Positions 1-3,000 of a stretch of DNA of 4,069 bases are shown here, piece by piece (positions within the stretch are counted from its first letter, which is position 1; the number at the start of each line of letters is the position of its first letter). The stretch lies in the IMG/VR virus record IMGVR_UViG_2671181118_000003, one strand, 5' to 3'. Source of the stretch: a virus (taxonomy: Duplodnaviria; Heunggongvirae; Uroviricota; Caudoviricetes). Position numbers: made by a program.

Positions 1-3000
1 GTGGAGAAGTGGGAAAAAGGAAAGATGCGTCTGCTGTGGGATAACAAAAAGCGGCGTAACGAAGCGCTGGACTGCCTGGTGTATGCCTACGCGGCATTAC
101 GTGTGTCCGTGCAACGCTGGCAGCTTGATCTGGCTGTACTGGCAAAATCCCGGGAAGAAGAGACGACCCGGCCAACCCTGAAAGAACTGGCAGCGAAGCT
201 GTCCGGAGGAGTGAATGGTTACAGTCGCTGAACTGCAGGCGCTGCGTCAGGCGCGCCTTGATTTATTAACCGGTAAACGGGTGGTGTCTGTCCAGAAAGA
301 TGGTCGCAGAATTGAATATACGGCGGCTTCTCTGGATGAGCTTAACCGGGCGATCAATGATGCGGAGTCGGTATCAGCGGTAACGTGAATGCGAATTCCG
401 GGACGCTCAACAACGTCACGATTAACGAGAACTGTCGGGTTCTGGGAAAACTGTCCGCGAACCAGATTGAAGGCGATCTCGTTAAAACAGTGGGCAAAGC
501 TTTCCCCCGGGATTCCCGTGCACCGGAGCGGTGGCCATCAGGGACCATTACCGTCAGGGTTTATGACGATCAGCCGTTTGACCGGCAAATTGTTATTCCG
601 GCGGTGGCATTCAGCGGCGCTAAACATGAGAGAGAGCATACTGATATTTACTCCTCATGCCGTCTGATAGTGCGGAAAAACGGTGCTGAAATTTATAACC
701 GTACCGCGCTGGATAATACGCTGATTTACAGTGGCGTTATTGATATGCCTGCCGGTCACGGTCACATGACGCTGGAGTTTTCGGTGTCAGCATGGCTGGT
801 AAATAACTGGTATCCCACAGCAAGTATCAGCGATCTGCTGGTTGTGGTGATGAAAAAATCCACAGCAGGTATCAGTATCAGCTGAATTTTATAACCCAGA
901 ACGGGCGTCAGAAATGACGCCTTTTTTATTGCAGAAAAGCGAGAGGTAATTATGCGTAAACTTTATGCCGCCATTTTGTCCGCAGCCATTTGTCTGACCG
1001 TATCCGGTGCGCCTGCATGGGCGTCTGAGCAGCAGGCCACGCTGAGCGCGGGGTATCTTCATGCCCGGACGAACGCTCCCGGTAGCGATAATCTTAACGG
1101 GATTAACGTGAAATACCGTTATGAATTCACGGACACGCTGGGGCTGGTGACGTCATTCAGCTATGCAGGAGACAGGAATCGCCAGATTACCCGTTACAGC
1201 GATACCCGCTGGCATGAAGATTCCGTGCGTAACCGCTGGTTCAGCGTAATGGCGGGGCCGTCTGTGCGCGTGAATGAATGGTTCAGCGCGTATGCGATGG
1301 CGGGAGTGGCTTACAGCCGTGTGTCGACTTTCTCCGGGGATTATCTTCGCGTAACTGACAACAAGGGGAAAACGCACGATGTGCTGACCGGAAGTGATGA
1401 CGGTCGCCACAGCAACACGTCTCTGGCGTGGGGGGCTGGCGTGCAGTTTAACCCGACCGAATCCGTGGCCATTGATATTGCTTATGAAGGCTCCGGCAGT
1501 GGCGACTGGCGCACTGACGGGTTCATCGTGGGTGTTGGCTATAAATTCTGATTAGCCAGGTAACACAGTGTTATGACAGCCCGCCGATTCAGGCGGGCTT
1601 TTTTGTGGGGTGAATATGGCAGTAAAGATTTCAGGTGTGCTGAAAGACGGCACAGGAAAACCGGTAGAGAACTGCACCATTCAACTGAAAGCCAGACGGA
1701 CCAGCAGCACGGTGGTGGTGAACACGGTGGCCTCTGAAAATCCGGATGAAGCCGGTCGTTACAGCATGGACGTTGAGTACGGTCAGTACAGCGTCATTCT
1801 GTTGGTGGAAGGATTCCCGCCGTCACATGCCGGGACCATCACCGTGTATGAAGATTCTCAACCCGGTACGCTGAATGATTTTCTCGGTGCCATGTCGGAG
1901 GATGACGTCCGGCCGGAGGCACTGCGTCGTTTTGAACTGATGGTGGAAGAAGCGGCGCGTCACGCTGAGGAGGCGAAGAAGAATGCCGGAGAGGCGGAGA
2001 CGTCCGCGAGGAATGCCGGCATATCAGCCAGTCAGGCGGAAGCGAGCGCGGCAAATGCTGACACTTCAGCAGGGGAGGCATCGGAGTCAGCCCGGCAGGC
2101 GGCAGAAAGTGCAGCCGCTGCAAAGAAGTCAGAGGAAGCGTCCTCGTCCTCGGCCTCTGAGGCCGCTCAAAAAGCCAGTGAGTCATTACAAAGTGCAGCA
2201 GATGCTGAGTTGTCAAAAAAGACGGCAGAAAGTGCAGCCGGTAATGCAGCCAGGGATGCAACGACCGCAACAGAAAAAGCCCGGGAGTCAGCAGAAAGCG
2301 CACAGTCAGCGGAACAAAGCAGGATAGCGGCGGAAGAAGCCGTAAACCGAATCCCGACCGTGGTGGGGCCTCCCGGGCCAAAGGGGGAACAGGGGCCCGC
2401 GGGTCCTCAGGGGCCGAAGGGAGATAAAGGAGAGCGTGGCGACACCGGCCCGGCAGGGGCAACCGGTGAACGGGGACCGGCAGGTGATGCTGGTCCGGCA
2501 GGCCCGCAGGGGCCGAAAGGTGACATGGGAGAGCGGGGAGAGACCGGTCTGACGGGAAATGCAGGTCCACAGGGTCCAAAGGGAGATACCGGTGCGGCAG
2601 GCCCGGCAGGCCCACAGGGACCGAAAGGAGAAACAGGTGCGGCTGGCCCGGTGGGGGCAACCGGACCTCAGGGACCGAAGGGCGACCCGGGGGAGACACA
2701 AATACGGTTCCGTCTGGGGCCGGGAAACATTATTGAGACAAACAGCAATGGCTGGTTCCCGGATACAGATGGCGCACTCATCACCGGACTGACCTTTCTT
2801 GACCCCAAAGATGCCACACGGGTTCAGGGGTTTTTTCAGCATTTGCAGGTCAGGTTTGGTGACGGGCCGTGGCAGGATGTCAAGGGGCTGGATGAAGTGG
2901 GCAGTGATACAGGCAGAACAGGAGAATGACATGAATATACTAAAAAAACTTATGCAGCGTCTGTGCGGTTGCGGAAAGCATGATGGCCGTGAACACGGGC

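Follow-up and report, generated by a model that had tools for sequence, protein, structure and literature searches.

An internal deletion attributed to illegitimate recombination fuses gpW to the 3' end of J in an nleB/espK-carrying lambdoid prophage of Escherichia coli

Introduction

The stretch of DNA analysed here (the window; 4,069 bp) is the complete draft contig CYCN01000060.1 of assembly GCA_001283945.1. It raises the question of how a gpW-like gene came to run directly into the 3' end of the tail gene J, and of what became of the head and tail genes. Lambdoid prophages carrying effectors in attaching-and-effacing E. coli are, as a rule, deleted or disrupted (PMC2669165), and a first-pass annotation of the window had proposed a single internal deletion as the simplest explanation. 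The evidence assembled here makes it very probable that illegitimate recombination at a 2-bp TA within a lambdoid prophage deleted the block extending from W to J.

Gene content of the window

All genes in the window lie on the + strand. The contig starts within the phage-21-type gpA gene for the terminase large subunit, and the last 76 codons of this gene (1-231) were identified from the GpA_nuclease domain (PF20454, profile positions 253-287 of 294) and from 100% DNA identity to genes annotated as 'phage terminase large subunit' in many genomes and to positions 229-459 of L013, a segment of the reference prophage described below. The gpW-like frame recognised earlier at 215-388 matches the Pfam gpW family (PF02831, E=2e-16). 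Alignment with the intact W of L013 and with lambda gpW revealed that this truncated gene, W', consists of 53 native codons (215-373) followed by four residues (SAVT), read out of frame from J DNA, and a TGA stop. As the first-pass annotation had stated, no gene intervenes between this frame and sequence for the last ~170 residues of J. The J remnant, J', comprises 170 codons (988-1157) at 373-885, as judged by the ORF list, the Ig_GpJ_C domain, the lambda J structures in the PDB and the DNA itself, which matches full-length J genes at their 3' ends with 99.9-100% identity. The junction itself, to which no strand is assigned, is the TA dinucleotide at 372-373, and was defined by a three-way alignment, BLAST against L013 and a shared 42-mer.

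Beyond J', the interval before lom contains a terminator-like hairpin with a run of T after it (903-922, + strand), as found by a consensus scan. The lom gene (952-1551) is intact and encodes a 199-aa Ail/Lom outer-membrane beta-barrel (Pfam Ail_Lom, 1-199 of 199, E=8e-118), in agreement with the annotation of L013 and of a further record, L002. The stf-like side tail fibre gene (1616-2929; 437 aa) is likewise intact, being annotated as such and containing the Pfam domains phage_tail_N, Collagen and Phage_fiber_C; it includes a long collagen-like Gly-X-Y stretch at about 2350-2700. The next ORF (2931-3200; 89 aa) was assigned from its annotation and from a second copy of the tail-fibre C-terminal domain (Phage_fiber_C, E=1e-34), and the PF06820 C-terminal domain of stf is thus duplicated in the adjoining 89 codons (window 1616-3200). 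The 5' 196 codons of nleB, which encodes a type III secretion system (T3SS) effector of the NleB/SseK arginine glycosyltransferase family, follow at 3377-3965 (SseK_NleB, profile positions 1-187 of 317). Homology to the intact nleB of L013 stops at 3965, where the gene is interrupted by IS1. The contig ends inside this element, and the terminal 104 bp present (3966-4069, + strand) are 99% identical to the end of the IS1B annotated in L002 and have thousands of matches, consistent with an IS.

Position and sequence of the junction

When the window was compared with 5,426 complete E. coli genomes by megablast, positions 1-373 were found to be 100% identical to the gpA 3' end and gpW codons 1-53 of phage-21-like prophages, and 99.7% identical to phage 21 and its relatives. 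Positions 372-3965 were 99.9% identical to a J 3' end, lom, stf, the tail-fibre C-terminal ORF and nleB, and several Stx phages match positions 372-1000 with 100% identity in their J-lom region. Both identities are far above chance (E=0). The A-W sequence is present in 1,895 of these genomes, at a median of two places each, and the J-lom sequence was found in thousands of records.

In the three-way alignment of the window with intact W and intact J, the switch from one sequence to the other is abrupt: the window is W-like until GGAGTCGGTA and J-like from TATCAGCGG, and only the TA at 372-373 is common to both. The crossover therefore lies between 371|372 and 373|374; the W-side and J-side homologies share these 2 bp and no filler DNA is present. 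The first-pass annotation had correctly given a range of about 350-400 for the breakpoint and had considered that it could not be placed from the sequence, whereas it is in fact located to within 2 bp. The direct repeats that might flank it amount to the TA alone.

Neither an IS nor an IS end was found at 372-373 by alignment or BLAST, the flanking bases being exactly W and J DNA, and the only IS1 in the window sits 3.6 kb from the junction, in nleB. Nor do W and J share tens of homologous bases at the crossover, where their surroundings cannot be aligned with each other. An adjacent deletion mediated by an IS was therefore rejected, as no IS abuts the junction, and so was homologous recombination between repeats (RecA or Red/RecET), as only TA is shared. 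With both excluded, illegitimate recombination is indicated.

Comparison with an intact relative

The prophage of E. coli 24AR0142 (NZ_CP195362.1), which is located at the potB/potC site, measures about 50.9 kb and is covered by segments L013 and L014, was used as the reference. Its genes are arranged in the order int-xis-exo, a racR-like immunity and replication region, Q (split by an IS3) and holin-lysozyme-Rz-perC-Nu1-A-W, followed by portal, S49 protease, D, E, FI, FII, Z, U, V, G, T, H, M, L, K and I, and then by ISCro1, sodC, J, lom, stf, the tail-fibre C-terminal ORF, nleB, a hypothetical gene and espK, after which potB is reached.

Window positions 1-373 correspond to L013 229-601 (100% identity), and the sequence from 372 onward corresponds to L013 from 20001 onward. 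The matched breakpoints at L013 601 and 20001 thus define the missing interval as L013 602-20002, which is 19,401 bp, or 16,694 bp if the ancestor had no ISCro1. The deleted sequence comprises the 3' part of W, the portal gene, the S49 protease/scaffold gene, the decoration and major capsid genes (D and E), FI, FII, Z, U, V, G, T, the tape measure gene H, M, L, K, I, sodC and the first 987 codons of J. As 24AR0142 carries everything from the W 3' end to J codon 987 between the two breakpoints, the proposal that the whole morphogenetic block was lost by internal deletion is borne out. The accompanying statement that the prophage keeps lom, stf and cargo holds for lom, stf, nleB and espK, but the sodC cargo gene was lost.

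The junction-bearing contigs L003 and L005, the longest recovered, are collinear with the 24AR0142 reference on both sides of the junction (99.6-99.8% identity) and continue into potB-potA-pepT. Collinearity on both sides with one prophage at the same site indicates an internal deletion of a single prophage and not a join between two. The gene order in L003, L004 and L005, all of which extend upstream as far as the lysis genes, where the readable sequence ends, is lysis-(Nu1)-A-W'-J'-lom-stf-nleB-espK-potB, and these contigs include no portal, capsid or tail genes. Relocation of the block had been named as the alternative that would overturn the deletion, and the lack of head and tail genes on L003 and L005 argues that the block is absent, not moved.

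The deletion prophage therefore shares with that of 24AR0142 its site, its gene order, 99.6-100% identity on both sides of the junction, W residues 1-53, the J 3' end, lom, stf, nleB and espK. The 24AR0142 prophage differs in keeping the 19.4-kb W-to-J block, including sodC and ISCro1, and in having a Q gene interrupted by IS3. It is the closest relative among the sequences compared, and differs by about 0.4%.

Three further features of these prophages were observed. ISCro1, a member of the IS66 family, occupies L013 13558-16256 (2,699 bp), where it has imperfect terminal repeats and an 8-bp target duplication, AATTATTC, and lies between tail gene I and the sodC cargo gene (L013 16380-16907); sodC is just upstream of J. 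The IS3 that splits the Q antiterminator gene is at L014 9496-11653, and because of it the 'intact' 24AR0142 prophage is probably itself defective for late transcription. A gene for a PerC-family regulator (L003 2101-2415; L014 3389-3703) lies between the lysis genes and cos/Nu1, beside a YlcI/YnfO (DUF3950) gene. PerC homologues can regulate LEE expression.

Consequences for gpW and J

The deletion joins gpW codon 53 to the third base of J codon 987. W' loses the last 15 residues of the 68-aa gpW and gains the four out-of-frame residues, and as PF02831 was matched only at profile positions 3-50 of 66, it is not a full-length member of the family. Having lost the C-terminal tail, and with no portal to bind, W' is presumably inactive.

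Full-length J has 1157 codons, and J' with codons 988-1157 only is not a full-length J, which would have about 1130-1160 aa and the N-terminal tail-tip domains. J' does hold the entire C-terminal receptor-binding domain (PF12421, profile positions 1-135 of 135, E=3e-39) and aligns with residues 962-1131 of the 1132 residues of lambda J in solved tail-tip structures. The possibility that the 361-885 product is a complete small protein of another family, raised when J was first proposed, was rejected, since full-length J genes end in this identical sequence and the domain and structural matches likewise identify a J C-terminus.

Frame 1 is open from 361. J' is without its native start, and an ORF of 166 codons is possible from GTG 385, which overlaps the W' stop TGA (GTGA, 385-388). 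Reinitiation at this GTG is conceivable from the sequence. No Shine-Dalgarno sequence was found 5-10 nt before GTG 385. A promoter scan of window positions 1-1700 also found no promoter-like site, and hence gave no support for independent expression of J'. The arrangement of the W' stop and the J' GTG resembles a natural translational coupling, and the 166-codon ORF has been deposited in databases as a 'phage tail tip protein'.

Recurrence and further decay of the junction allele

An exact look-up found the 57-aa W' fusion protein on at least 20 contigs. The ten matches listed comprise nine NCBI assemblies from several accession series, that of the window included, and one ENA gut-metagenome scaffold. 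An identical 42-nt junction is present in L003-L012, among which the window is L011, and a 29-mer scan of IMG/VR found it also in the IMG/VR contig L015. Junction contigs reach 27 kb. None of the 5,426 complete E. coli genomes searched by megablast spans the junction, and all junction evidence thus comes from short-read draft contigs. An exact 40-mer of the junction had no match in a one-genome-per-species set or in JGI metagenomes, the former result saying little because that set holds one genome for each species. The junction is probably an allele handed down within a set of E. coli strains.

Other deletions had been suspected in the rest of the prophage, and were found in relatives that carry the junction. 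L005, L006 and L015 are without a further 844 bp that includes Nu1 and the gpA 5' end, a second, independent deletion located at L005 1587-1588, L006 522-523 and L015 1586-1587, where the BLAST segments overlap by 2 bp. As compared with 24AR0142, L003 is without 1,035 bp of lysis genes (holin, ydfR and a portion of the lysozyme gene), the site being L003 433-437 with a 5-bp BLAST overlap. L004, which represents the window's own type of genome, is 100% identical to the window where the two overlap. Upstream of the position of the window start, L004 1-9650, with the lysis genes and the greater part of gpA, has no more than 85-96% identity to the reference, as against 99.9-100% downstream. This difference indicates that a different lambdoid prophage supplied the upstream region by homologous recombination, the boundary of the replacement lying inside gpA.

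Insertions also distinguish the carriers. The IS1 in nleB, after codon 196, is present in the window, L004, L006 and L008 and absent from L003, L005 and L015, in which nleB is intact (326 aa). A different IS1 insertion, 266 bp further downstream in nleB, was seen in strain Z1323HEC0010. The differences between carriers are the continued erosion expected after the loss of virion formation.

Origin of the junction

As both flanks are multi-copy in E. coli and repeats bound the window, itself a short draft contig, the junction might have been created in assembly, by misjoining a copy of the A-W repeat to a J-lom copy from a different prophage. However, a 2-bp overlap is far too short for a join in a k-mer (de Bruijn) graph, and about ten other assemblies, deposited by different submitters, have exactly this junction, as does a metagenome scaffold. 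An assembly chimera was therefore rejected, its probability being close to nil. A slim chance is left for a history of two or more deletions, perhaps with one of them mediated by an IS, of which the junction would record only the last. Relatives do accumulate small deletions, such as the 844 bp of Nu1/A and the 1,035 bp of lysis genes, and ISCro1 lies inside the lost interval in the intact relative. Nevertheless, the junction has no IS, IS end or filler, every junction contig retrieved has the same end state with no intermediate among them, and one event is more parsimonious than several.

The remaining explanation takes the locus to be functional and not inert. It could be a cos-Nu1-A derivative of ~31.5 kb that is packaged by a helper and spreads nleB and espK in heads and tails provided by phage-21-type prophages resident in the same cell, and/or the J' receptor-binding domain could be made through coupling to W' and have a role of its own, for example in binding a phage receptor. 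L003, L007, L009 and L010 have gene calls of full length for Nu1 and A (169 and 642 aa), the J' domain is complete, and GTG 385 overlaps the W' stop. Trans-complementation of head-defective prophages, by which prophages without head genes are packaged with the help of others, is documented in O157 Sakai (PMC2669165). Against this, Nu1 and the gpA 5' end are lost in L005, L006 and L015 and holin-lysozyme in L003, from which it follows that those functions are not under selection. The expression of J' by such a route has neither a Shine-Dalgarno sequence near GTG 385 nor a promoter-like site within 1-1700 in its favour, and the Q antiterminator is IS3-split in the intact relative. The lambda-type packaging minimum is roughly 75% of genome length, and ~31.5 kb falls below it, the genome of phage 21 being 42.9 kb. 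A functional element of either kind is unlikely, more so than a stepwise loss. A phage satellite or PICI would be an island of ~10-15 kb that encodes an int, a repressor, a primase-replication module and capsid-redirecting functions of its own, and would not be collinear with a full prophage; this class was rejected, as the element is collinear with the 50.9-kb lambdoid prophage wherever it can be read.

The internal deletion of a lambdoid prophage remains much the best account of these data, and the following course of events is envisaged. A lambdoid prophage with phage-21-type head genes, nleB and espK would have been integrated between potB and potC. Illegitimate recombination at the TA microhomology would then have deleted ~19.4 kb (~16.7 kb in the absence of ISCro1), fusing W53 to J and leaving the lysis genes, the Nu1/A terminase, lom, stf and the effector cargo. 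The resulting prophage can build neither heads nor tails and is hence fixed in the chromosome, and the deletion allele would have been passed on in E. coli strains and then eroded further. The collinearity, the breakpoint, the lost gene content and the recurrence of the junction are established by the sequence comparisons. A deletion in one step, as first suggested, is the parsimonious reading. The molecular route may have been microhomology-assisted end joining or topoisomerase-type illegitimate recombination.

Relation to known prophages and significance

The deletion prophage is an ordinary case of the well-known decay of prophages. The cryptic lambdoid prophages Rac, Qin and DLP12 of E. 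coli K-12 have also lost most head and tail genes, keep fragments (lom, stf/tfa, lysis and the nohA/nohB terminase-like genes) and are vertically inherited. They differ from the potB/potC deletion prophage in being much older and more eroded, in having other integration sites and in carrying no T3SS effector cargo. The Sp prophages of O157:H7 Sakai (Asadulghani et al. 2009, PMC2669165) have the same lambdoid backbone, with morphogenetic modules that are nearly identical between prophages, and share the location of T3SS cargo downstream of the tail-fibre genes and inactivation by deletions and IS insertions. The present case differs in being a potB/potC allele with a W(53)-J(988) fusion. No description of the W53/J988 allele was found in the literature searched.

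The finding matters little beyond annotation, for which it carries a warning: the database entries for these genomes that name a 57-aa 'gpW family' protein and a 166-aa 'tail tip' protein describe artefacts of the deletion and not genes. The W53/J988 junction also provides an exact lineage marker that can be tested by PCR, and adds a base-resolved example of illegitimate recombination at a 2-bp microhomology in prophage decay. For the E. coli lineage that carries it, which probably causes attaching-and-effacing lesions, the deletion shows how a prophage bearing nleB and espK became locked in the chromosome.
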